A stretch of DNA of 64,000 nucleotides from Escherichia coli. GTDB lineage: Bacteria; Pseudomonadota; Gammaproteobacteria; Enterobacterales; Enterobacteriaceae. The position numbers and the translations under genes are program-made. Shown here one piece after another: positions 13,505-53,685 of the stretch. The DNA is taken from assembly GCF_044324785.1 (NCBI RefSeq), contig NZ_CP172127.1; one strand, given 5' to 3'. Positions within the stretch are counted from its first letter, which is position 1. Each line of letters opens with the position of its first letter. A model generated the notes under the pieces. It was not told the origin of the DNA, made no database searches, and was given only the letters and a program-made list of their open reading frames with translations.

Positions 13505-14008
13505 TTAAATTTTCTTATGTAATAGAGGTGAATAATCTTCCCAAAAATCCATACAAGCTTTACTTGCATAAAAGAATCCAGCGTCTGATTCATAAGACAT
13601 AAACTGTGCAATAATAGATAGTTGTATATCTGAAAAATTAAAAACAAAATTCAAAAAATCATCGTGATCCCGATACTCAGGACATAAATATTGTTGAATA
13701 AAATCGGATTCAAAAACCCAAAAATCATTCTTATTAAACAACGAGGCATAAATATACAGAGGGATGTAATAGCAGAATACTTTCTCAGGGAGGAATGTAA
13801 TTCCTAACTCTAAAGCATAAGAGTCATCCTTTATTTTAAAATTGTTGGCTATTTCATTCCATTGTTTCTTTTGGAAAAAATTATATACAATATCCAGTTC
13901 CTCCAGCCCTGTAATATCATTTGAAATATGAGGTAATGGCTGGCATGGGAAATGAATCATAAGTTCATCATAGACTGCACTCTCGTTAGAGAAAATTATT
14001 TTTTTCAT
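13505..14008 (-). CDS. Candidate RhsC immunity protein (RhsI-like), cytoplasmic
   Basis: ORF 13505..14026; ATG at 14008 overlaps rhsC stop as ATGA; no signal peptide; strongly AT-rich. Confidence 0.55.
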
Positions 14009-17000
14009 TTTATTAAGCCACTGCAATCAGCTGCTGTTTTATATGCTTTATTCTCTTCTTCCATATGGGCCTTATCTCCACCACCAAAGCACTGATTATT
14101 AATCTGCTTTCTGACCGAAGCGCACGCCAAATTTATCTCGTACCGTCTCAATATTTCTTTTCTCAGCATCTGAGGAGCGCAAGCTCTAGACTGGTTACAT
14201 AATCTGTTTTTTTCATTTTGTAAGTCACTCAGGTTCTGGGGACTACAGTTACCACCAGGATTTACACCTGACTTATGTTCATCTGTTAATTTGTCGGCTT
14301 CTGGATTAACTTTACGGCCATATTGATCTCTGCGTTGTTGCCCACTTTGGATAACACCACCTGATGAAAACAAACCGCAACTCATCAGTGCTACAACACC
14401 AAGAATTAACGGATTTAACCCTTGTGGGTCTATCTCTGAGATCGGATTTAACGGATACTGATAAAAATTCCATCCCCCCTTCAGTCCAATCGGATCCTGA
14501 GTGATATACCGCCCCTTCAGCGGGTCATAATAGCGGTGGCGGTTGTAATACAGGCCGGACTCCTCATCATACTGCTGACCCGGCAGGCGGATGAGCTGCT
14601 GCAGCTGGTGCGGGTTCTCTTCATTCAGCAGGTTGCCCCATTCATCGTATTCTGCGCACCATTCTGTTGCCCCTTCCGTGCTGACAAGCGCCAGCGGCAG
14701 GCCGCGATGGTCGCAGTGGTACAGGTGGATTTTTCGCGCCGGCGTGTACACCGGGTCCATCTGGTTTTGTATCTGCTCCACCGTCAGGCCGCACGATGCC
14801 AGCCAGCGGCGGCTTTCCTCACTCACCCGGTCAGCCAGGATTTCACTTTCCAGCCGGTCGAGCATCTGCACCAGCACCGGCGGGAACACCACACTGCCAC
14901 CGTCTTCACCGCCGGACTGCTGAAGCGCATCCGCCAGGCTGCGGCGCTGCGTTTTCGCCAGCTCACCGGTGGCGGTTTCGACCCTGATGAGTGGCGTGAA
15001 GCTCCCCGGCTGATAAACCGTCTGGATGCGGGTTCTGTCGTTCTGTATCGTGGTCAGCCGGTCGCCGTCCCAGCCGTACCAGGTCACTTCCGGTTTCCGT
15101 GACAGCGACATCCAGCCCGTCAGGTCCCGTTCACGCCGCCACACCCGTTTTGCCACCCTGCGGCCCAGCGGGTCGTAAAGATAGCGACTTTCGACCAGCG
15201 GCTCTGCATATTGTGTCCGCGTGTAGTGCACCAGCCGGTGCCGGCTGTCGTAATGGTACTGGTGAGTCCGCTCATCATCCGTGCGGATAACCCCTTCCGG
15301 GATGAGGTCGGTTTTCTCTGTCAGCCTGCCGTGACGGTCATACCGGTAAAGATAGTGCGCGTCACGGGCGATACGGTTATCCGGCCACATGCTGAGGGTG
15401 CTGTCCGGGTGCAGCTCCGGGTCGGGCAGGCGGTTGCCTGCCGGGTCCGTGGCATACGGGATGCGGATATCAAGGTTCGCTGCCGTGGTGTGGACGCCGG
15501 TCAGCCTGCCGGTGTCGCTGTAGCTGTAACTCCGGGTCTGGCGCGGGCTGCTGATGCGGATGAGTTCGCCGTTGTCGTTCCAGGTGTAATCGCGGTCATA
15601 CTGCAGGCTGTTCAGGTGCTGGCTCTGTAACTGCCCGGCAGAGGTATAAGCGGTGGTGAGTTCATAACGGCCGAAGCTGCGCAGCGTTTCCCGGTGCAGG
15701 CGGTCGCGGGTATACTCCACCAGCGGTGTGTCGCCGAGTTTCATGCCTGCCAGCCAGCCGCTGCCGTAAGTCAGCCATTCCACGGCGGGCAGGCTGTCCG
15801 GTATACAGCGGTTCGCCAGCCCCTGCGCGTTGTACGCATGTCTGGTTTCATGCTGCCAGAGCAGTGCTTCCGTCTGCGGGTGATGCACCGTCTGGCGCTC
15901 ACCGGTCAGGCGGCCTTTCTCATCATACCCGTAATGCACCGTCACCCGGTGGCCTTCGCTGAGATGGCTGATGCCTGTCAGCCAGCCGCGTTCGTCATAC
16001 TGCCACTGCTCTGCAGGTTCACCCTTCACGGTACGCTGCGTGATGCGGTCTGCTTCGTCATAGTGCCAGTGGGTGACCAGCCCCTCATCCTCGCTGCGGA
16101 TAAGTTTGCCGGTCAGGTCGTGGTGATAACGCTGTGTACGGCCGTCAAAGCCGGTTTCCTGTATCAGCCGGTCGAGTACATCGTAACGGAAGGTGGTGTG
16201 GCTGCCGTTTTCACTGGTCAGGCGGATGACCCGTCCGGCAGCATCGTATTCCATACTGCGCGTCAGACCGCCCTGCGTGGTACGGATGGCCTTTCCCCAC
16301 GCATCGTACTGTGTCCCGTTTCTGCTGCCGTCCGGGGCAATGACGGCGGTCAGGTCACCGGCGGCGTTGTATTCATACCGCGTTTCATGGCCCTGCATGT
16401 CTTTCACCGCAATTAACTGTCCACGGCTGTCGTATGCGCGGTACTGGCTCAGGCCTTCCTCGCGGTGCACCGCCGTCACCTGACCAAAACGGTCATGGTC
16501 ATAACGGGTTACATAACCGGAACAGTCAGTGACGGTCAGCAACTGACCGTAACGGCTCCATGTCATGGTTTTCCGGCTGCCGGTGGCATCTTCCGTTGCG
16601 CAGGGTAAGTCACTGTGTGGATTATCATAACGGTAGCGGGTGATATCGCCGTTGTGTGCGGTTTCCTGAATCAGACGGCCGGATTCATCATATTCCCGGC
16701 GCAACTCCAGCCCGTCAGTCCCGGTGGCTGACGTTAACTGGTTGTGGTGGTTATAGTAAAACGCCGATGCCCTGCCATCCGGTGTGGTGATGCGCGTGAT
16801 GAGTCCCGTCACCACATCCGGGCTGTACTCAGTCGTCCGGCCTGCGGCATCCGTCTGTGCCTTAAGCCTGCCCACCGCGTCAAACTGACTCTGCGTGACG
16901 CTGCCGTCCGCGTGTTCCTTTTTCACCACCCGCTTCAGCCCGCCTTCGCCCTGCGTGTGCAGGACTTCACGGCGGTCCAGGCTGTCGGTGATGGTGATGT

Positions 17001-18156
17001 GGTCTTTCTCATACTGATACGTGTAGCTTAAGCCTGCCGGGTTTAGCTGTTCTGTCACCCGCCCGTCACTGTCGTAACGGTAACGGATTTCCGGCCGGCC
17101 CGTGTGACGGTGCGCCACCATCCGGCCCCGGTATTTATCATCGTAAGTAAAGCTGCGCACCTGTGTGCCGCTGCGGTCATACACCGCCGCCAGTTCGCCG
17201 CGTGGCGTCCAGCCATAGCGTACCAGCGGCGCGGCTGGCAGGTTGTCCGGATATTCCGGGTCGTGCGTCAGCCACACGGCAGACAGACGGATGCCGTTGT
17301 CCCGGCCATATTCGGTGTAACCCGGCAGGGTATCAGGAAAAGCGGACGGTTCCGCCCCGCCGGAAATGGCCTGCTGCCGGGCCTCTTCTGCCCGCAACGC
17401 CTGCGTGGTCAGTACCAGCCGGAAGTGACGCCCGGCACCATCCGTCACGCCGGTGATTTCGCCGCTGAATTCGCCGCCAGCCTCACGGTGGAACGTCTGT
17501 GTGCGCCCGAAGCGGTCCACCAGCCCGGTCAGTACCCGGTACGGCGGCAGTGGCGCAGGCAGCACCTCATCCGCCTCCGGCACCCGCTCACACCAGCCGA
17601 GTACCCACCACGGCCCCTGCGGACTGTTCGTCGCCAGATAACGATGCGGACTCAGGCGAAGCTCTTCCGGCAGCGCCTGCCAGAGTGCGGCCAGCCGGTG
17701 ACCTTCATCCAGTTTCGCCACGCCGCCGCGCACCAGCCAGAGTGACTCGCTGCGGCTGTAACCGTCCTCACCGGGAAACAGGTGCTCAAAATACAGGCTT
17801 CTGCCGCCGTTATCACTGAGTATCAGTGTGTTATCGCGCAGCTGTAAGCGGATATCCGCAGGCATTTTCCAGCCGGGGCCGAGGCTCCCCACCGGCGCGG
17901 GCGTTTTTGTCCGGTAACTGCTGTAGGTGCGGGAGAGGATGAACGGCAGCGGGCCGGGCAGGGCAAGGTCGGTTTCTCCGGGAAGGACCTTCGCACCGAG
18001 CAGCGGATTGACCGGATGGCCGGACGTCACCCCGCCGGGGCACACCGAACAGGCCACGCCGGTGGGGGCACCAATACGTACCCCGGCTGAACCCTGAACA
18101 ATGCTACCGCCATACTGCGTCATGTCGCCCTGACGCGCCGCCGGTTTTCCGCTCAT
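14005..18156 (-). CDS. rhsC: Rhs family polymorphic toxin (PAAR-like N-terminus, YD-repeat core, C-terminal toxin domain)
   Basis: 1383-aa ORF; N-terminus [25 protein letters not shown]; many YD-type repeats; DPQGL encoded at 14416..14430; position between ybgA and ybfA/kdp matches the rhsC locus. Confidence 0.9.
14481..14730. repeat. Direct repeat copy B of Rhs core 3' end (inside rhsC)
   Basis: Partner of 13161..13410. Confidence 0.8.
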
Positions 18157-18399: not shown

Positions 18400-18606
18400 T
18401 CAGTAAAAATCACCAGTTGCCTTTTCTGCCTGATCCATCCACACCGGTTTCTCGCTGGTTTTCGACCAGACGCGGTGCAGGTAGCTGTAAAAGCGGGCGC
18501 GGTCTTTCCAGAAAAGCATGAAAGGCAGCGCCAGAACGCCCGCTGCAACCGCATAAGTACGGCGTAAAAAGATAAGCCATGCAGGATATTCTCTGTAGAG
18601 TTCCAT
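18400..18606 (-). CDS. ybfA: Small membrane protein (DUF2517)
   Basis: 68-aa [36 protein letters not shown], divergent from kdp operon. Confidence 0.8.
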
Positions 18607-18821
18607 ACTTTTCTCCCCCTTTTGTATCTACCCGGTGAGGTGAATGGCACCGGAAAAATGAATTTGTTTATCTGATGAAAATAGTACCGCCTTTTGTGTA
18701 ATTTTACTACTCATCCGACCACTTATTTTTGCTTATTGATGGTTTATTTACATTCACCGTGTAATTAAGTTACACAAAAGTTAAATTAATACTAACCATC
18801 AGTTAAATCATGGCTTTTGCC

Positions 18822-18845
18822 ATTTTTATACTTTTTTTACATCCC
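18822..18845 (+). promoter_or_regulatory. KdpE operator of the kdpFABC promoter
   Basis: CATTTTTATACTTTTTTTACATCCCGCCCG matches the T-rich KdpE-binding region as I recall it, about 80 bp upstream of kdpF. Confidence 0.55.
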
Positions 18846-18923
18846 GCCCGAAGATTTTTGCGAAATCTTTGCAGCCAGAATTCTACCCTTCCGGTATCAC
18901 TTTTAGGCCACTGGAGGTGCACT

Positions 18924-19013
18924 GTGAGTGCAGGCGTGATAGCCGGCGTGTTGCTGGTGTTTTTATTACTGGGTTATCTGGTTTATGCCCTGATCAATGC
19001 GGAGGCGTTCTGA
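18924..19013 (+). CDS. kdpF: K+-transporting ATPase small subunit KdpF
   Basis: 29-aa hydrophobic peptide (M)[28 protein letters not shown]; GTG start 6 nt after GGAGG; stop TGA overlaps kdpA ATG. Confidence 0.75.
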
Positions 19014-20686
19014 TGGCTGCGCAAGGGTTCTTACTGATTGCCACGTTTTTACTGGTGTTAATGGTGCTGGCACGTCCTTTAGGCAGCGGGCTGGCGCGGC
19101 TGATTAATGACATACCTCTTCCCGGTACAGCGGGTGTTGAACGCGTACTTTTTCGTTTACCTGGCGTCTCTGACAGTGAGATGAACTGGAAGCAGTATCT
19201 CTGTGCCATTCTCGGCCTGAACATGCTGGGGCTGGCGGTGCTGTTTTTTATGTTGCTCGGTCAGCACTATCTGCCGCTTAATCCACAGCAGTTGCCGGGG
19301 CTGTCGTGGGATCTGGCGCTGAATACTGCCGTCAGCTTTGTCACCAATACCAACTGGCAATCTTACAGCGGTGAAACCACGTTGAGCTATTTCAGCCAGA
19401 TGGCGGGCTTAACGGTGCAAAACTTTCTTTCTGCCGCCAGCGGGATTGCGGTGATTTTTGCCCTCATCCGTGCGTTTACCCGCCAGAGCATGAGCACACT
19501 CGGGAATGCCTGGGTCGATCTGTTACGCATCACGTTATGGGTGCTAGTCCCTGTGGCGTTGTTGATCGCACTGTTTTTTATTCAACAAGGTGCACTGCAA
19601 AACTTTCTGCCCTATCAGGCGGTGAATACCGTTGAAGGAGCGCAACAGCTGTTACCCATGGGTCCGGTGGCTTCTCAGGAAGCGATCAAGATGCTCGGTA
19701 CTAACGGCGGTGGCTTCTTTAATGCCAACTCGTCGCATCCGTTTGAAAACCCAACCGCACTGACCAACTTCGTGCAGATGCTGGCGATCTTCTTGATCCC
19801 AACAGCGCTGTGCTTTGCCTTTGGTGAAGTGGCAGGCGATCGCCGCCAGGGGCGCATGTTGCTGTGGGCGATGTCAGTGATTTTTGTCATCTGCGTAGGC
19901 GTGGTGATGTGGGCAGAAGTTCAGGGTAATCCTCATCTGCTGGCACTGGGTGCGGACAGCAGCATCAATATGGAAGGTAAAGAGAGCCGTTTCGGCGTGT
20001 TGGTCAGTAGCCTGTTTGCGGTCGTGACTACGGCGGCGTCCTGTGGCGCGGTGATTGCGATGCATGATTCGTTTACCGCTCTCGGCGGCATGGTGCCGAT
20101 GTGGCTGATGCAAATTGGTGAAGTGGTGTTCGGCGGTGTCGGTTCTGGTCTTTACGGCATGATGCTGTTTGTCCTGCTGGCGGTGTTTATTGCCGGGCTG
20201 ATGATTGGTCGTACGCCGGAATATCTGGGTAAAAAAATCGACGTACGCGAGATGAAACTGACCGCACTGGCGATTCTGGTCACCCCGACGCTAGTGCTGA
20301 TGGGCGCGGCGCTGGCAATGATGACCGACGCCGGACGTAGCGCCATGCTCAACCCGGGCCCGCATGGTTTTAGCGAAGTGCTGTACGCCGTGTCGTCCGC
20401 CGCTAACAACAACGGCAGCGCCTTTGCCGGATTAAGCGCCAACTCCCCATTCTGGAACTGTTTGCTGGCGTTCTGCATGTTTGTTGGTCGCTTCGGGGTG
20501 ATTATTCCGGTGATGGCAATTGCTGGTTCGCTGGTGAGTAAAAAGAGCCAACCCGCCAGCTCCGGCACACTGCCTACGCACGGCCCGCTGTTTGTTGGCC
20601 TGTTAATCGGCACCGTGTTGCTGGTTGGCGCACTGACCTTTATCCCTGCCCTGGCGCTTGGTCCGGTGGCGGAATATCTCTCCTGA
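19013..20686 (+). CDS. kdpA: K+-transporting ATPase subunit A
   Basis: Start [14 protein letters not shown] within ORF 18869..20686; 557 aa. Confidence 0.95.
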
Positions 20687-20708: not shown

Positions 20709-22757
20709 ATGAGTCGTAAACAACTGGCGCTATTCGAACCAACACTTGTCGTTCAGGCGCTGAAAGAAGCGGTGAAAAAATTAAACCCGCAGGCGCAATG
20801 GCGCAATCCGGTGATGTTTATCGTCTGGATCGGCAGTCTGTTAACCACCTTTATTAGCATCGCGATGGCAAGCGGTGCGATGCCTGGCAATGCGCTGTTT
20901 AGCGCGGCAATTAGCGGCTGGCTGTGGGTCACCGTACTGTTCGCTAATTTCGCCGAGGCGCTGGCAGAAGGCCGCAGTAAAGCGCAGGCCAACAGTCTGA
21001 AAGGGGTGAAAAAAACTGCCTTTGCCCGCAAGCTTCGTGAGCCGAAATATGGCGCTGCGGCAGACAAAGTTCCTGCCGATCAACTGCGTAAAGGCGATAT
21101 CGTACTGGTGGAAGCTGGCGATATTATCCCCTGCGATGGTGAAGTCATTGAAGGGGGCGCATCGGTCGATGAAAGCGCCATCACCGGGGAATCGGCACCG
21201 GTGATCCGTGAATCCGGCGGCGATTTTGCCTCCGTCACTGGCGGCACGCGTATTCTTTCTGACTGGCTGGTGATTGAGTGTAGCGTTAACCCCGGCGAGA
21301 CATTTCTGGATCGGATGATCGCGATGGTGGAAGGCGCACAGCGACGTAAAACGCCGAACGAGATTGCCCTGACCATCCTGCTGATTGCCCTGACTATCGT
21401 CTTTTTACTGGCAACCGCCACGCTGTGGCCGTTTTCCGCGTGGGGCGGTAATGCAGTCAGCGTAACGGTACTGGTGGCGCTGCTGGTCTGTCTGATCCCA
21501 ACCACTATTGGCGGCCTGTTGTCAGCGATCGGCGTCGCCGGGATGAGCCGGATGCTGGGCGCGAATGTGATTGCCACCAGCGGACGTGCAGTTGAAGCGG
21601 CGGGTGACGTTGACGTCCTGCTACTGGATAAAACCGGCACCATCACACTCGGTAACCGTCAGGCGTCGGAGTTTATCCCCGCGCAAGGCGTGGATGAAAA
21701 AACGCTGGCTGACGCCGCACAACTGGCTTCGCTGGCTGATGAAACGCCAGAAGGCCGCAGTATTGTGATCCTCGCCAAGCAGCGTTTTAACCTGCGCGAG
21801 CGCGATGTGCAGTCGCTCCATGCCACCTTTGTACCGTTTACTGCGCAAAGCCGGATGAGCGGGATCAACATCGACAACCGCATGATCCGTAAAGGTTCTG
21901 TCGATGCCATTCGCCGCCATGTTGAGGCTAACGGTGGTCACTTCCCTGCCGATGTTGATCAAAAAGTCGATCAGGTTGCGCGTCAGGGAGCCACGCCGCT
22001 GGTGGTGGTGGAAGGTTCCCGCGTGCTGGGCGTTATTGCGCTGAAAGATATCGTTAAAGGCGGTATTAAAGAGCGCTTCGCCCAACTGCGCAAAATGGGC
22101 ATTAAAACGGTGATGATTACCGGCGATAACCGTCTGACTGCCGCTGCGATTGCTGCGGAAGCGGGCGTCGATGATTTCCTCGCTGAAGCGACACCGGAGG
22201 CCAAGCTGGCACTGATCCGTCAGTATCAGGCGGAAGGCCGTTTGGTGGCGATGACCGGCGACGGCACCAACGATGCTCCGGCGCTGGCGCAGGCAGATGT
22301 CGCGGTGGCGATGAACTCCGGTACTCAGGCGGCGAAAGAAGCGGGCAATATGGTGGATCTCGACTCTAACCCGACCAAGTTGATCGAGGTGGTACATATT
22401 GGCAAACAGATGCTGATGACCCGTGGCTCGCTGACCACCTTCAGCATTGCCAACGATGTGGCGAAATACTTCGCCATTATTCCGGCGGCGTTCGCGGCAA
22501 CGTATCCGCAGTTAAATGCGCTGAACATCATGCGCCTGCATTCGCCCGACTCCGCCATTCTCAGTGCGGTCATTTTCAACGCCTTGATTATCGTCTTTTT
22601 GATTCCCCTGGCGTTAAAAGGCGTGAGTTATAAACCGCTTACCGCTTCTGCCATGTTGCGCCGTAACTTATGGATTTACGGTCTGGGTGGGCTGCTGGTG
22701 CCATTTATTGGTATCAAAGTCATTGATTTACTGCTGACCGTTTGCGGTCTGGTGTGA
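20709..22757 (+). CDS. kdpB: K+-transporting P-type ATPase subunit B
   Basis: 682-aa ORF with P-type ATPase motifs (DKTGTIT at the phosphorylation site, [11 protein letters not shown]). Confidence 0.95.
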
Positions 22758-22765
22758 GGTTTACC

Positions 22766-23338
22766 ATGCGTGGATTACGTCCGGCATTATCGACATTTAT
22801 CTTTCTGTTATTGATTACTGGCGGCGTTTACCCGCTGCTGACCACCGCGCTGGGGCAATGGTGGTTTCCCTGGCAGGCCAACGGTTCGTTGATCCGTGAA
22901 GGTGATACGGTGCGCGGTTCGGCATTAATCGGGCAGAATTTTTCCGGCAACGGCTATTTTCATGGTCGCCCGTCGGCAACGGCAGAAATGCCCTATAATC
23001 CACAGGCTTCTGGCGGGAGCAATCTGGCGGTCAGTAACCCTGAGCTGGATAAACTAATAGCCGCACGCGTTGCTGCATTACGGGCCGCTAACCCGGATGC
23101 CAGCGCGAACGTTCCGGTTGAACTGGTGACGGCATCGGCAAGCGGGCTGGACAATAACATCACCCAGCAAGCGGCGGCCTGGCAGATCCCACGCGTGGCG
23201 AAAGCGCGTAATCTCAGCGTTGAACAGCTCACGCAACTGATCGCAAAATACAGCCAACAACCGCTGGTGAAATATATCGGCCAGCCGGTCGTCAACATTG
23301 TCGAACTCAATCTGGCGCTGGATAAGCTTGATGAATAA
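22766..23338 (+). CDS. kdpC: K+-transporting ATPase subunit C
   Basis: ATG at 22766 after GAGGT RBS; 190 aa; single N-terminal TM segment. Confidence 0.9.
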
Positions 23339-26015
23339 CGAACCCTTACGTCCCGACCCCGATCGTCTGCTGGAACAAACTGCCGCGCCGCATCGGGGGA
23401 AGCTGAAAGTTTTCTTCGGTGCCTGTGCGGGCGTCGGGAAGACCTGGGCGATGCTGGCAGAGGCCCAGCGACTGCGGGCGCAAGGGCTGGATATTGTGGT
23501 TGGCGTGGTTGAAACCCACGGGCGGAAAGATACCGCCGCAATGCTGGAAGGGCTGGCTGTTCTGCCGCCCAAACGCCAGGCGTACCGTGGGCGGCATATC
23601 AGCGAGTTTGATCTCGATGCCGCCCTCGCCCGCCGTCCGGCGCTGATCTTAATGGACGAACTGGCGCACAGTAATGCGCCAGGTTCTCGTCATCCTAAAC
23701 GCTGGCAGGACATCGAAGAGCTGCTGGAAGCAGGCATTGATGTTTTCACAACCGTCAACGTTCAGCATCTGGAAAGTCTGAATGATGTGGTCAGCGGCGT
23801 CACCGGAATTCAGGTACGGGAAACCGTGCCCGATCCTTTTTTCGATGCCGCCGACGACGTGGTGCTGGTGGACTTGCCCCCGGACGATCTGCGTCAAAGG
23901 CTGAAAGAAGGTAAAGTCTATATTGCCGGGCAGGCGGAACGCGCCATTGAACATTTTTTTCGCAAAGGCAATCTGATCGCCCTGCGCGAACTGGCACTGC
24001 GCCGTACTGCCGATCGCGTAGATGAGCAAATGCGCGCCTGGCGGGGGCATCCTGGCGAAGAGAAAGTCTGGCACACGCGCGACGCGATCCTTTTATGCAT
24101 CGGGCATAACACCGGCAGCGAAAAACTGGTCCGCGCGGCGGCGCGGCTGGCGTCACGGCTGGGTAGCGTCTGGCACGCGGTGTATGTTGAAACCCCTGCC
24201 CTGCACCGCTTACCGGAGAAAAAACGTCGGGCAATTCTCAGCGCCTTACGTCTGGCGCAGGAGCTGGGCGCGGAGACGGCAACACTTTCTGATCCAGCGG
24301 AAGAGAAAGCGGTAGTGCGTTATGCGCGTGAACATAATCTCGGCAAGATTATTCTCGGTCGCCCGGCCTCGCGCCGCTGGTGGCGTCGGGAAACGTTTGC
24401 TGACCGACTGGCGCGCATCGCCCCCGATCTCGATCAGGTGCTGGTCGCGCTTGATGAACCACCCGCCCGCACGATTAACAACGCGCCGGATAGCCGCTCT
24501 TTTAAAGACAAGTGGCGGGTACAGATTCAGGGATGCGTGGTTGCCGCCGCGTTATGCGCCGTTATCACCTTAATTGCCATGCAGTGGCTGATGGCGTTTG
24601 ATGCCGCCAACCTGGTGATGCTGTATCTGCTGGGCGTGGTGGTGGTGGCGCTATTTTATGGACGCTGGCCTTCGGTGGTTGCCACCGTCATTAATGTGGT
24701 GAGTTTCGATCTCTTTTTTATCGCCCCACGCGGCACGCTCGCCGTCTCTGATGTGCAATATCTGCTGACCTTCGCGGTGATGTTAACCGTCGGGCTGGTG
24801 ATCGGGAACCTTACTGCTGGCGTGCGTTATCAGGCGCGGGTAGCCCGTTACCGCGAGCAACGCACACGGCACTTATATGAAATGTCGAAAGCTCTGGCTG
24901 TGGGCCGCAGTCCGCAGGACATCGCCGCCACCAGCGAACAATTTATTGCCTCCACGTTTCATGCCCGCAGTCAGGTGTTGTTGCCCGATGACAACGGTAA
25001 ATTGCAGCCGTTAACACATCCGCAAGGAATGACGCCGTGGGACGATGCCATCGCGCAGTGGAGTTTTGATAAAGGCCTGCCTGCGGGCGCGGGCACCGAC
25101 ACGTTACCCGGTGTACCGTACCAGATTTTGCCGCTAAAAAGCGGCGAGAAAACCTACGGGCTGGTGGTGGTGGAACCGGGGAATCTGCGCCAGTTGATGA
25201 TCCCGGAACAGCAACGCCTGCTGGAGACGTTTACGCTGTTAGTCGCCAATGCGCTTGAGCGGCTGACACTGACCGCCAGCGAAGAACAGGCGCGGATGGC
25301 AAGCGAACGAGAACAGATCCGCAACGCCCTGCTGGCGGCGCTTTCGCATGATTTACGCACGCCGCTTACGGTGCTGTTCGGACAGGCAGAAATCTTAACG
25401 CTCGATCTGGCAAGCGAAGGATCGCCGCACGCCCGCCAGGCCAGCGAGATTCGTCAGCATGTGCTGAACACGACCCGACTGGTGAATAATCTACTGGATA
25501 TGGCGCGAATTCAGTCCGGCGGCTTTAATTTGAAGAAAGAGTGGTTAACGCTGGAAGAAGTGGTCGGCAGCGCGCTGCAAATGCTGGAACCGGGTTTATC
25601 GTCGCCCATCAATCTTTCTCTGCCAGAACCGCTGACCTTAATCCACGTTGACGGGCCACTCTTTGAACGGGTGCTGATTAATCTGCTGGAGAACGCGGTG
25701 AAATACGCGGGTGCACAGGCCGAAATTGGTATCGATGCCCACGTTGAGGGCGAAAATCTACAACTGGATGTCTGGGATAACGGCCCCGGTCTTCCGCCAG
25801 GCCAGGAGCAGACGATATTTGATAAGTTTGCTCGCGGGAATAAAGAGTCGGCGGTGCCGGGTGTCGGGCTTGGGCTGGCAATTTGTCGGGCGATTGTGGA
25901 TGTACACGGTGGCACCATTACCGCGTTCAACCGACCGGAAGGTGGTGCCTGTTTTCGTGTTACACTTCCCCAGCAAACTGCCCCTGAACTTGAAGAATTT
26001 CATGAGGATATGTGA
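23331..26015 (+). CDS. kdpD: Sensor histidine kinase KdpD
   Basis: Start [10 protein letters not shown] at 23331 overlapping kdpC stop; 894 aa; membrane-spanning region plus HisKA (H-box LSHDLRTPL) and HATPase domains. Confidence 0.9.
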
Positions 26016-26689
26016 CAAACGTTCTGATTGTTGAAGATGAACAGGCTATTCGTCGCTTTCTGCGCACGGCGCTGGAGGGCGACGGTATGCGCGTCTTTGA
26101 GGCCGAAACGCTGCAACGCGGCTTGCTGGAAGCGGCAACCCGTAAGCCAGATTTGATTATTCTCGATCTCGGCCTGCCCGATGGTGATGGGATTGAGTTT
26201 ATCCGCGACCTGCGCCAGTGGAGCGCGGTGCCGGTGATTGTGCTTTCCGCACGTAGCGAAGAGAGCGACAAAATCGCCGCGCTGGATGCCGGAGCGGATG
26301 ATTACCTGAGTAAGCCATTTGGTATTGGCGAATTGCAGGCCCGCCTGCGCGTCGCTTTACGCCGCCACTCTGCCACCACCGCGCCCGATCCGATGGTGAA
26401 ATTTTCCGATGTTACCGTCGATTTAGCAGCTCGTGTGATCCATCGGGGCGAGGAAGAGGTGCATCTCACCCCGATTGAGTTCCGCCTGCTGGCAGTGTTG
26501 CTTAATAATGCGGGAAAAGTGCTCACCCAGCGCCAGCTCCTTAACCAGGTGTGGGGGCCAAACGCGGTCGAACACAGTCATTATTTGCGTATTTATATGG
26601 GGCATCTGCGACAAAAACTGGAGCAAGATCCCGCCCGCCCCCGCCATTTTATTACTGAAACCGGTATTGGGTATCGGTTTATGCTTTAG
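26012..26689 (+). CDS. kdpE: Response regulator KdpE (OmpR family)
   Basis: 225-aa [20 protein letters not shown]; ATGA overlap with kdpD. Confidence 0.95.
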   Translation: MTNVLIVEDEQAIRRFLRTALEGDGMRVFEAETLQRGLLEAATRKPDLIILDLGLPDGDGIEFIRDLRQWSAVPVIVLSARSEESDKIAALDAGADDYLSKPFGIGELQARLRVALRRHSATTAPDPMVKFSDVTVDLAARVIHRGEEEVHLTPIEFRLLAVLLNNAGKVLTQRQLLNQVWGPNAVEHSHYLRIYMGHLRQKLEQDPARPRHFITETGIGYRFML

Positions 26690-44641: not shown

Positions 44642-44718
44642 GGCTACGTAGCTCAGTTGGTTAGAGCACATCACTCATAATGATGGGGTCACAGGTTCGA
44701 ATCCCGTCGTAGCCACCA
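44642..44718 (+). tRNA. metT: tRNA-Met (CAU), elongator type
   Basis: 77-nt cloverleaf-compatible sequence, anticodon loop CTCATAA, 3' CCA encoded. Confidence 0.9.
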
Positions 44719-44726
44719 TCTTTTTT

Positions 44727-44811
44727 GCGGGAGTGGCGAAATTGGTAGACGCACCAGATTTAGGTTCTGGCGCCGCAAGGTGTGCGAGTTCAAGTCTCGC
44801 CTCCCGCACCA
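44727..44811 (+). tRNA. leuW: tRNA-Leu (UAG)
   Basis: 85-nt sequence with long variable arm, anticodon loop TTTAGGT, CCA end. Confidence 0.9.
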
Positions 44812-44834
44812 TTCACCAGAAAGCGTTGTACGGA

Positions 44835-44909
44835 TGGGGTATCGCCAAGCGGTAAGGCACCGGTTTTTGATACCGGCATTCCCTGGTTCGAATCCAGGTA
44901 CCCCAGCCA
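44835..44909 (+). tRNA. glnU: tRNA-Gln (UUG)
   Basis: 75-nt sequence, anticodon stem CCGGT/ACCGG with loop TTTTGAT, CCA end. Confidence 0.9.
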
Positions 44910-44924
44910 TCGAAGAAACAATCT

Positions 44925-45001
44925 GGCTACGTAGCTCAGTTGGTTAGAGCACATCACTCATAATGATGGGGTCACAGGTTCGAATCCCGTCGTAGCCACC
45001 A
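44925..45001 (+). tRNA. metU: tRNA-Met (CAU), elongator type, second copy
   Basis: Identical to 44642..44718. Confidence 0.9.
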
Positions 45002-45049
45002 AATTCTGAATGTGTCGAATAAGTTCGGCAAATTCACAAACCAATTTGT

Positions 45050-45124
45050 TGGGGTATCGCCAAGCGGTAAGGCACCGGATTCTGATTCCGGCATTCCGAG
45101 GTTCGAATCCTCGTACCCCAGCCA
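45050..45124 (+). tRNA. glnV: tRNA-Gln (CUG)
   Basis: 75-nt sequence, anticodon loop TTCTGAT, CCA end. Confidence 0.9.
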
Positions 45125-52607: not shown

Positions 52608-53516
52608 ATGCAATTACGTAAACCTGCCACAGCAATCCTGGCCCTGGCGCTTTCCGCAGGACTGGCACAGGCAGATGACGCCGCCCCGGCAGCGGGCAGT
52701 ACTCTGGACAAAATCGCCAAAAACGGTGTGATTGTCGTCGGTCACCGTGAATCTTCAGTGCCTTTCTCTTATTACGACAATCAGCAAAAAGTGGTGGGTT
52801 ACTCGCAGGATTACTCCAACGCCATTGTTGAAGCAGTGAAAAAGAAACTCAACAAACCGGACTTGCAGGTAAAACTGATTCCGATTACCTCACAAAACCG
52901 TATTCCGCTGCTGCAAAACGGCACTTTTGATTTTGAATGTGGCTCTACCACCAACAACGTCGAACGCCAAAAACAGGCGGCTTTCTCTGACACTATTTTC
53001 GTGGTCGGTACGCGCCTGCTGACCAAAAAGGGCGGCGATATCAAAGATTTTGCCGACCTGAAAGGCAAAGCCGTAGTCGTCACTTCCGGCACTACCTCTG
53101 AAGTTTTGCTCAACAAATTGAATGAAGAGCAAAAAATGAATATGCGCATCATCAGCGCCAAAGATCACGGTGACTCTTTCCGCACCCTGGAAAGCGGTCG
53201 TGCTGTTGCCTTTATGATGGATGACGCTCTGCTGGCCGGTGAACGTGCGAAAGCGAAGAAACCAGACAACTGGGATATCGTCGGCAAGCCGCAGTCTCAG
53301 GAAGCCTACGGTTGCATGTTGCGTAAAGATGATCCGCAGTTCAAAAAGCTGATGGATGACACCATCGCGCAGGTGCAGACCTCCGGTGAAGCGGAAAAAT
53401 GGTTTGATAAGTGGTTTAAAAATCCCATTCCGCCGAAAAACCTGAACATGAATTTCGAGCTGTCAGACGAAATGAAAGCACTGTTCAAAGAACCGAATGA
53501 TAAGGCACTGAACTAA
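52608..53516 (+). CDS. gltI: Glutamate/aspartate ABC transporter periplasmic binding protein
   Basis: ATG at 52608 after AAAGGA RBS; signal peptide MQLRKPATAILALALSAGLAQA; 302 aa. Confidence 0.9.
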   Translation: MQLRKPATAILALALSAGLAQADDAAPAAGSTLDKIAKNGVIVVGHRESSVPFSYYDNQQKVVGYSQDYSNAIVEAVKKKLNKPDLQVKLIPITSQNRIPLLQNGTFDFECGSTTNNVERQKQAAFSDTIFVVGTRLLTKKGGDIKDFADLKGKAVVVTSGTTSEVLLNKLNEEQKMNMRIISAKDHGDSFRTLESGRAVAFMMDDALLAGERAKAKKPDNWDIVGKPQSQEAYGCMLRKDDPQFKKLMDDTIAQVQTSGEAEKWFDKWFKNPIPPKNLNMNFELSDEMKALFKEPNDKALN

Positions 53517-53672
53517 TTACAAGAACCAGGGGCGGAAATTCCAGCCCTCTCGATTGTTACGTAGCACGGACAGACTATACGCCTGATGGTCGTTCCCCAT
53601 CGGGCCTGAAAACCGCAATACGCTGGGTAACAATCTTCGAGGGTAGCAGTTAACGCTGCTACCCTCTTTTTT
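53512..53672 (+). ncRNA. sroC: Candidate SroC sRNA (processed from gltI-gltJ spacer)
   Basis: 169-bp gltI-gltJ intergenic region ending in strong terminator; SroC is described at this position in E. coli/Salmonella; 5' end not determinable from sequence. Confidence 0.4.
53637..53670 (+). terminator. Intrinsic terminator in gltI-gltJ spacer
   Basis: GAGGGTAGCAGttaacGCTGCTACCCTCTTTTTT. Confidence 0.8.
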
Positions 53673-53685
53673 CTGGAGTAGATTT

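Follow-up and report, generated by a model that had tools for sequence, protein, structure and literature searches.

The closest described system to the locus analysed here is the kdpFABC promoter of Escherichia coli K-12, on which Sugiura and colleagues are said to have obtained a footprint of the regulator KdpE in 1992. The KdpE site of this promoter consists of two imperfect 6 bp direct repeats, S1 (TTTATA) and S2 (TTTACA), with a 5 bp spacer between them (Narayanan et al. 2012, PMC3264566), and the minimal fragment bound is 21 bp in length, in which S1 is flanked upstream by 3 bp and S2 downstream by 1 bp (PMC3264566). This fragment was stated to agree with a 23 bp footprint spanning -72 to -50 relative to the kdpFABC transcription start (PMC3264566), and a cryo-EM preprint places the half-sites at -67 to -62 and -56 to -51 (bioRxiv 10.1101/256826); the definition of the half-sites has drawn on EMSA, mutagenesis and footprinting (PMC3264566; bioRxiv 10.1101/256826). 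When the binding of phosphorylated KdpE was surveyed by genomic SELEX, only one target was recovered, the spacer between kdpF and ybfA (PMC5934670), and ChIP-exo in K-12 has revealed strong KdpE peaks at 728827-728858 and 728873-728902 (PMC7657598, supplement). The neighbouring gene ybfA has been found to be activated through a site composed of three direct repeats, at position -136 to -94, bound by ArcA (Park et al. 2013, PMC3798270).

Here, the corresponding region is described in a 64,000 nt stretch of E. coli DNA (the window), and compared both with K-12 and with related loci from other genera. For the latter, species-representative genomes were scanned with KdpA, which gave 80 loci; the 25 belonging to the Enterobacterales were analysed, with operator counts referring to the 24 of these that have enough upstream DNA.

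Organisation of the locus

Between 18.4 and 26.7 kb, the window has ybfA on the reverse strand and kdpFABCDE on the forward strand (Table 1), in an E. coli-type layout that equals that of K-12 base for base and is exactly as given in the RefSeq annotations of K-12 MG1655 and E. coli strain 1190. When compared with K-12 gene by gene, the kdp genes are of equal length, lack internal stops and use equal start codons, which in both genomes are GTG in kdpF and kdpE and ATG in the remainder. The kdpE stop codon (26687-26689) is TAG in the window and TGA in K-12. A megablast search with positions 18600-19100 found this 501 bp region to be present at ≥95% identity in 5,422 of 5,426 complete E. coli genomes, the matches being 95-99% identical and annotated as ybfA, kdpF and kdpA. 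There is little room for doubt that the locus is the canonical E. coli kdpFABCDE control region and operon.

Upstream of ybfA, a 1383 aa ORF (14005-18156, reverse strand) corresponds to an RHS element core protein in the annotation of a matching E. coli genome, and to rhsC in K-12. Elsewhere in the window, matches to Rfam families comprise a cluster of five tRNA genes (44642-45121, forward strand) and the sRNA sroC (53512-53674, forward strand; 175 bits).

Table 1. Features of the ybfA-kdpFABCDE region, in window coordinates, with the amino acid identity of each Kdp protein to its K-12 counterpart
Feature	Coordinates	Strand	Description	Identity to K-12
ybfA	18400-18606	-	68 aa ORF, divergent from the kdp genes (ORF list, direct reading)	
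23 nt block ATTTTACTACTCATCCGACCACT	18701-18723		Each column identical in at least 10 of 11 sequences (11 Enterobacteriaceae genera)	
ArcA site AAGTTACACAAAAGTTAAATTAATACTAACCATCAGTTAAATC	18767-18809	+	Three GTTA-type direct repeats in 11 bp phase; 2 substitutions relative to K-12	
KdpE operator (putative)	18825-18841	+	S1 TTTATA 18825-18830, spacer CTTTT, S2 TTTACA 18836-18841	
Probable -10 hexamer of the kdpFABC promoter	18884-18889	+	TACCCT; TA...T positions invariant in the 24-sequence alignment	
Shine-Dalgarno of kdpF	18913-18917	+	GGAGG, 6 nt before the GTG (direct reading)	
kdpF	18924-19013	+	GTG start; 29 aa and TGA stop (19011-19013)	28/29 (sole difference T7A)
Shine-Dalgarno of kdpA	19001-19005	+	GGAGG formed by Ala and Glu codons towards the kdpF 3' end, with a 7 nt spacing to the kdpA ATG	
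kdpA	19013-20686	+	ATG start 19013-19015; 557 aa	550/557
kdpB	20709-22757	+	682 aa; kdpA stop 22 nt before	678/682
kdpC	22766-23338	+	190 aa; kdpB stop 8 nt before	185/190
kdpD	23331-26015	+	ATG start 8 nt inside kdpC; 894 aa	892/894
kdpE	26012-26689	+	GTG start 26012-26014; 225 aa	224/225 (sole difference L128M)

The putative KdpE operator and the kdpFABC promoter

The initial annotation of the window had proposed a T-rich, KdpE operator-like sequence about 80 bp upstream of kdpF. Through direct reading and by script, this sequence, TTTTTATACTTTTTTTACA, was located at 18823-18841; it contains the exact published half-sites and matches TTTATA-N5-TTTACA without a mismatch, and the distance between the end of S2 and the kdpF start, counted at 82 nt, is close to the original estimate. 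The minimal published 21 bp fragment corresponds to 18822-18842. Both half-sites and the 5 bp spacer agree with the published promoter and KdpE footprint (PMC3264566, bioRxiv 10.1101/256826), and alignment shows the operator to be identical to that of K-12. Between S2 and the kdpF GTG there are no indels relative to K-12 and two substitutions, C>T at 18842, the position adjoining S2 (T in the window, C in K-12), and C>A at 18851, both of which are also found in E. coli strain 1190.

Following coordinate conversion, the K-12 ChIP-exo peaks fall at 18887-18918 and 18843-18872 respectively, immediately downstream of the two hexamers and not on them, across the leader and core promoter. They are consistent with the KdpE site at the level of the promoter, rather than being base-precise. 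A third, weak ChIP-exo peak has been recorded near the ybfA start (PMC7657598, supplement 2).

Being located in an AT-rich region, the T-rich sequence might alternatively represent a generic UP-like element, or a chance match to the motif, and not a specific KdpE site. Allowing up to one mismatch, TTTATAN5TTTACA has one match in the 64 kb, both strands combined, where shuffling predicted 0.16 and 14 of 100 shuffled sequences contained one or more, such that the motif count alone is only mildly significant; the main weight lies on the position of the sequence and its conservation across genera. The operator was identified in all 24 loci, 21 of which have an exact copy of each hexamer, the other three having one or two mismatches, and its end is always 79-87 nt from the kdpF start. 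In an alignment of the 24 sequences, it stands out within the 125 nt upstream of kdpF as the longest invariant block and the one conserved best. Neither a chance match nor a generic element would readily account for hexamers that are near-invariant at a fixed distance from kdpF between variable flanks, for an exact agreement with the published site in each half-site and in spacing (PMC3264566), or for the placement of KdpE in the ybfA-kdpF spacer by SELEX (PMC5934670) and ChIP-exo (PMC7657598), and this explanation is regarded as extremely improbable. In the cognate KdpE encoded in the window, R193, R200 and T215, which contact DNA, are all retained, as is the phospho-acceptor D52, and the protein matches KdpE in the DNA-bound crystal structures of PDB entries 4kny and 4kfc. 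Sequence comparison therefore supports the assignment of the T-rich sequence as the KdpE operator of kdpFABC, as experimentally defined in K-12.

Further conserved blocks in the 24-sequence alignment are a T-rich/TTGC stretch, a TAnnnT hexamer and a GGAGG motif. On the basis of TACCCT as the probable -10 and the published site coordinates, transcription probably starts at about 18892-18897: the published numberings point to ~18892 and the conserved TAnnnT hexamer to ~18896, with a precision of ~5 nt. The 5' UTR of kdpF would accordingly be about 28-32 nt in length. A consensus scan found no sigma-70 promoter in 18600-19050; the absence of a consensus -35 or a scan match is expected, as the kdpFABC promoter is activator-dependent, and because weak or activator-dependent promoters may escape such scans, this null result carries no weight either way.

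No Rfam family was found in the kdp region, whether the whole window was searched at gathering thresholds or 18550-19050 at E ≤1; in the latter search, the only match was to an archaeal snoRNA (18 bits) and attributable to chance. A riboswitch or leader RNA is therefore unsupported. Similarly, RNA structure across the likely 5' UTR and kdpF was not significant (folding z-score -0.74).

The start and product of kdpF

The GTG at 18924-18926, already favoured as the kdpF start in the initial annotation, is the RefSeq start in both K-12 and strain 1190 and has a suitably placed Shine-Dalgarno sequence (Table 1). A start at this position, 29 codons in length, is conserved in all 25 Enterobacterales loci, as GTG in 21 and as ATG in Mangrovibacter, Edwardsiella, Budvicia and Hafnia, and in nearly all of them a GGAG-type motif is found 5-7 nt before it. 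The peptide shares 28 of its 29 residues with 6hra_D (E = 2.5e-12), and the KdpF chain of solved KdpFABC, present in 25 PDB entries, shows the same 28/29 match and begins at the same Met. The gene lies directly before kdpA and fits the description of KdpF as a hydrophobic, single-helix peptide of ~29 aa. In the literature searched, neither ribosome profiling of start sites nor N-terminal proteomics was found for E. coli kdpF.

Other in-frame starts can be considered, namely an ATG at 18810, which opens the 67 aa ORF (18810-19013) reported in a listing of longest ORFs, and, inside kdpF, GTG codons at 18936 and 18948 and a TTG at 18951. However, the ATG at 18810 is upstream of both the operator and the promoter, and so is not on the kdp mRNA; moreover, the N-terminal extension is not conserved, and this ORF was rejected as an artefact of selecting the longest reading frame. 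The internal codons are absent in many genera and are not accompanied by Shine-Dalgarno sequences. By contrast, the 29-codon position is the only one shared by all 25 loci, including the four in which it is an ATG, and the structural chain starts there. A kdpF start elsewhere is therefore very improbable, and the GTG at 18924 is retained.

A hairpin at 18942-18958 followed by a T-run, GTTTTTATTA (to 18968), has a terminator-like appearance within kdpF on the forward strand; the number of such matches is near that expected by chance. A terminator is not favoured here (18942-18968), the hairpin and its T-run being best explained by the Val-Phe-Leu-Leu codons.

Overlapping junctions within the operon

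Stop and start codons overlap at three junctions, as in the K-12 annotation: by 1 nt at kdpF/kdpA, by 8 nt at kdpC/kdpD and by 4 nt at kdpD/kdpE. At the first, the kdpF TGA and the kdpA ATG share base 19013 (cTGATGg), as had been described for the window and as annotated in both K-12 and strain 1190. Such a 1 nt overlap, in the form of TGATG or TAATG, was found in 19 of the 25 Enterobacterales loci, a count in which the Mangrovibacter junction (1/25 loci) was mis-anchored by the script; the two genes abut in Yersinia and Rahnella (TAAATG), and are 1 nt apart in Providencia. A Shine-Dalgarno-type tetramer (GGAG, GAGG or AGGA) precedes kdpA in every one of the 25 loci. As this tetramer is always kept, the conserved 'AE' of KdpF may be constrained by the kdpA ribosome-binding site as well as by the function of the protein.

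At the kdpC/kdpD junction, the overlap (ATGAATAA) runs from the kdpD ATG at 23331, within GATGAATAAC, to the end of the kdpC TAA at 23338, in accordance with the 8 bp previously given and with the K-12 annotation. The kdpD/kdpE overlap, by contrast, had been recorded as ATGA, of which the 4 nt length is correct and the sequence is not. Because kdpE starts with GTG, the overlap is GTGA, within ATGTGAC, formed by the kdpE GTG (26012-26014) and the kdpD TGA (26013-26015) exactly as in K-12; the ATG at 26010-26012 encodes the Met with which KdpD ends and is not the start of kdpE. A GAGG motif is located 4 nt upstream of the kdpE GTG, and kdpD is preceded by a weak Shine-Dalgarno-like GGATAAG.

Judging from these overlaps, translational coupling within the kdp operon is plausible, and the geometry of the kdpF/kdpA junction is one that, as read from the DNA, would permit both re-initiation and independent initiation. 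The overlaps could instead represent compact packing, each cistron being initiated at its own Shine-Dalgarno sequence without real coupling, at least between kdpF and kdpA. The strong GGAGG of kdpA is compatible with such independence, having been maintained across all 25 loci at positions that include synonymous ones, as are the GAGG of kdpE and the junctions of Yersinia, Rahnella and Providencia, at which the kdpF stop and kdpA start do not overlap. Nevertheless, every correctly read kdpF/kdpA junction has either an overlap or a gap of 0-1 nt, a geometry favouring re-initiation; kdpD, starting inside kdpC, has only its weak Shine-Dalgarno-like sequence; and independent initiation may in any case coexist with coupling. 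Packing without coupling is considered possible but on balance unlikely.

A model for expression of the operon

These observations can be assembled into a putative sequence of events. When K+ is limiting, the sensor kinase KdpD would phosphorylate KdpE, a dimer of which is expected to bind head-to-tail to TTTATA-N5-TTTACA (18825-18841), centred ~60 bp before the transcription start. Bound KdpE would then activate a sigma-70 promoter that has the TACCCT -10 and no good -35, giving an mRNA predicted to begin about 28-32 nt before kdpF, which would be translated from the GTG at 18924 by means of the GGAGG 6 nt upstream. On termination at the kdpF TGA, ribosomes would be positioned on the kdpA ATG (TGATG), with the conserved GGAGG 7 nt upstream, such that kdpA could be translated through re-initiation, fresh initiation or both. 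Transcription is proposed to run on into kdpDE, where each start codon overlaps the stop codon of the gene before it (ATGAATAA and GTGA), thereby generating positive feedback on the regulators. In this scheme, the elements are taken from their identity with K-12 and their conservation across genera at the sequence level, and KdpE binding and activation from the K-12 literature, while we infer the transcription start and the coupling.

The expression of kdpDE appears not to depend wholly on this route. A weak promoter inside kdpC reportedly provides the basal level of kdpDE, according to work by Polarek and colleagues in 1992. The consensus scan found no sigma-70 promoter for kdpDE inside kdpC, again an uninformative result where a promoter is weak, and the reviews searched contained no explicit statement of a separate kdpDE promoter. 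In K-12, deletion of kdpE altered kdpD mRNA by a log2 fold change of -6.78 under the inducing condition of K+ limitation, relative to just -0.22 at high K+, when the operon is uninduced (PMC7657598). The difference between these values indicates that kdpDE has both basal, KdpE-independent expression and KdpE-dependent expression through read-through.

The remainder of the ybfA-kdpF spacer

At least 11 genera share the divergent arrangement of ybfA and kdpF, and alignment identified strongly conserved blocks in the spacer upstream of the KdpE site. We know of no binding factor assigned to one of these, the 23 nt block at 18701-18723. It overlaps a 28 aa ORF (18628-18714, reverse strand), the third codon positions of which are also conserved, and for this reason it has the appearance of an element acting as DNA or RNA, not as a protein. 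The published position of the ArcA site (PMC3798270) would put the transcription start of ybfA near 18673 and, relative to it, the 23 nt block at roughly -28 to -50; the -10 of ybfA would then be TACTAT, the reverse complement of 18681-18686.

A hairpin at 18632-18653 (CCGGTG...CACCGG) is found in the 5' UTR of ybfA, the stem of which has been kept across genera through compensatory changes. In the window, its loop harbours a 5 bp tandem duplication, GGTGA GGTGA (18634-18643), which neither K-12 nor any of the complete E. coli genomes searched possesses, the best match being 56/61.

Between the end of the three ArcA repeats and the KdpE footprint there are only about 11-15 bp, and the 11 bp series of the repeats, if continued, arrives within 1 base of the half-sites. 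It is this proximity that makes it possible for ArcA and KdpE to influence one another: the divergent spacer might function as one integrated bidirectional switch, in which ArcA~P and KdpE~P each affect the other's promoter and a further factor acts on the block at 18701-18723. We consider this improbable; if true, the cross-influence would tie the uptake of K+ to redox state, or ybfA to K+ limitation.

Comparison with known systems

The control region, the KdpE site, the gene starts and the overlaps are all already known, ordinary and fully described, and none of them is novel. What the window can be said to carry is an intact high-affinity K+ uptake system under canonical regulation, with six complete genes, an intact operator and an intact KdpE. 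The useful outcomes are the correction of the kdpD/kdpE junction to GTGA and the mapping of every element of the ybfA-kdpF spacer in window coordinates, together with cross-genus evidence that the GTG start of kdpF is conserved, as is the kdpA Shine-Dalgarno sequence embedded in the same gene.

Relative to the kdpFABC promoter and KdpE box of K-12, the half-sites, their spacer, the distance to kdpF, the Shine-Dalgarno sequence, the GTG start and the -10 region are identical, and the two point differences downstream of S2 are not expected to alter function. The wider family with which the operator can be compared is that of OmpR/PhoB-type direct repeats, including the PhoB pho box and the sites of OmpR and ArcA. 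Unlike the pho box, which replaces the -35, the KdpE site is located further upstream, at about -50 to -72 in the published numbering. Likewise, the TGATG, 8 nt and GTGA junctions of the kdp genes resemble the overlapping stop/start junctions, whether ATGA, TGATG or longer, that have been tied to translational coupling in bacterial operons.
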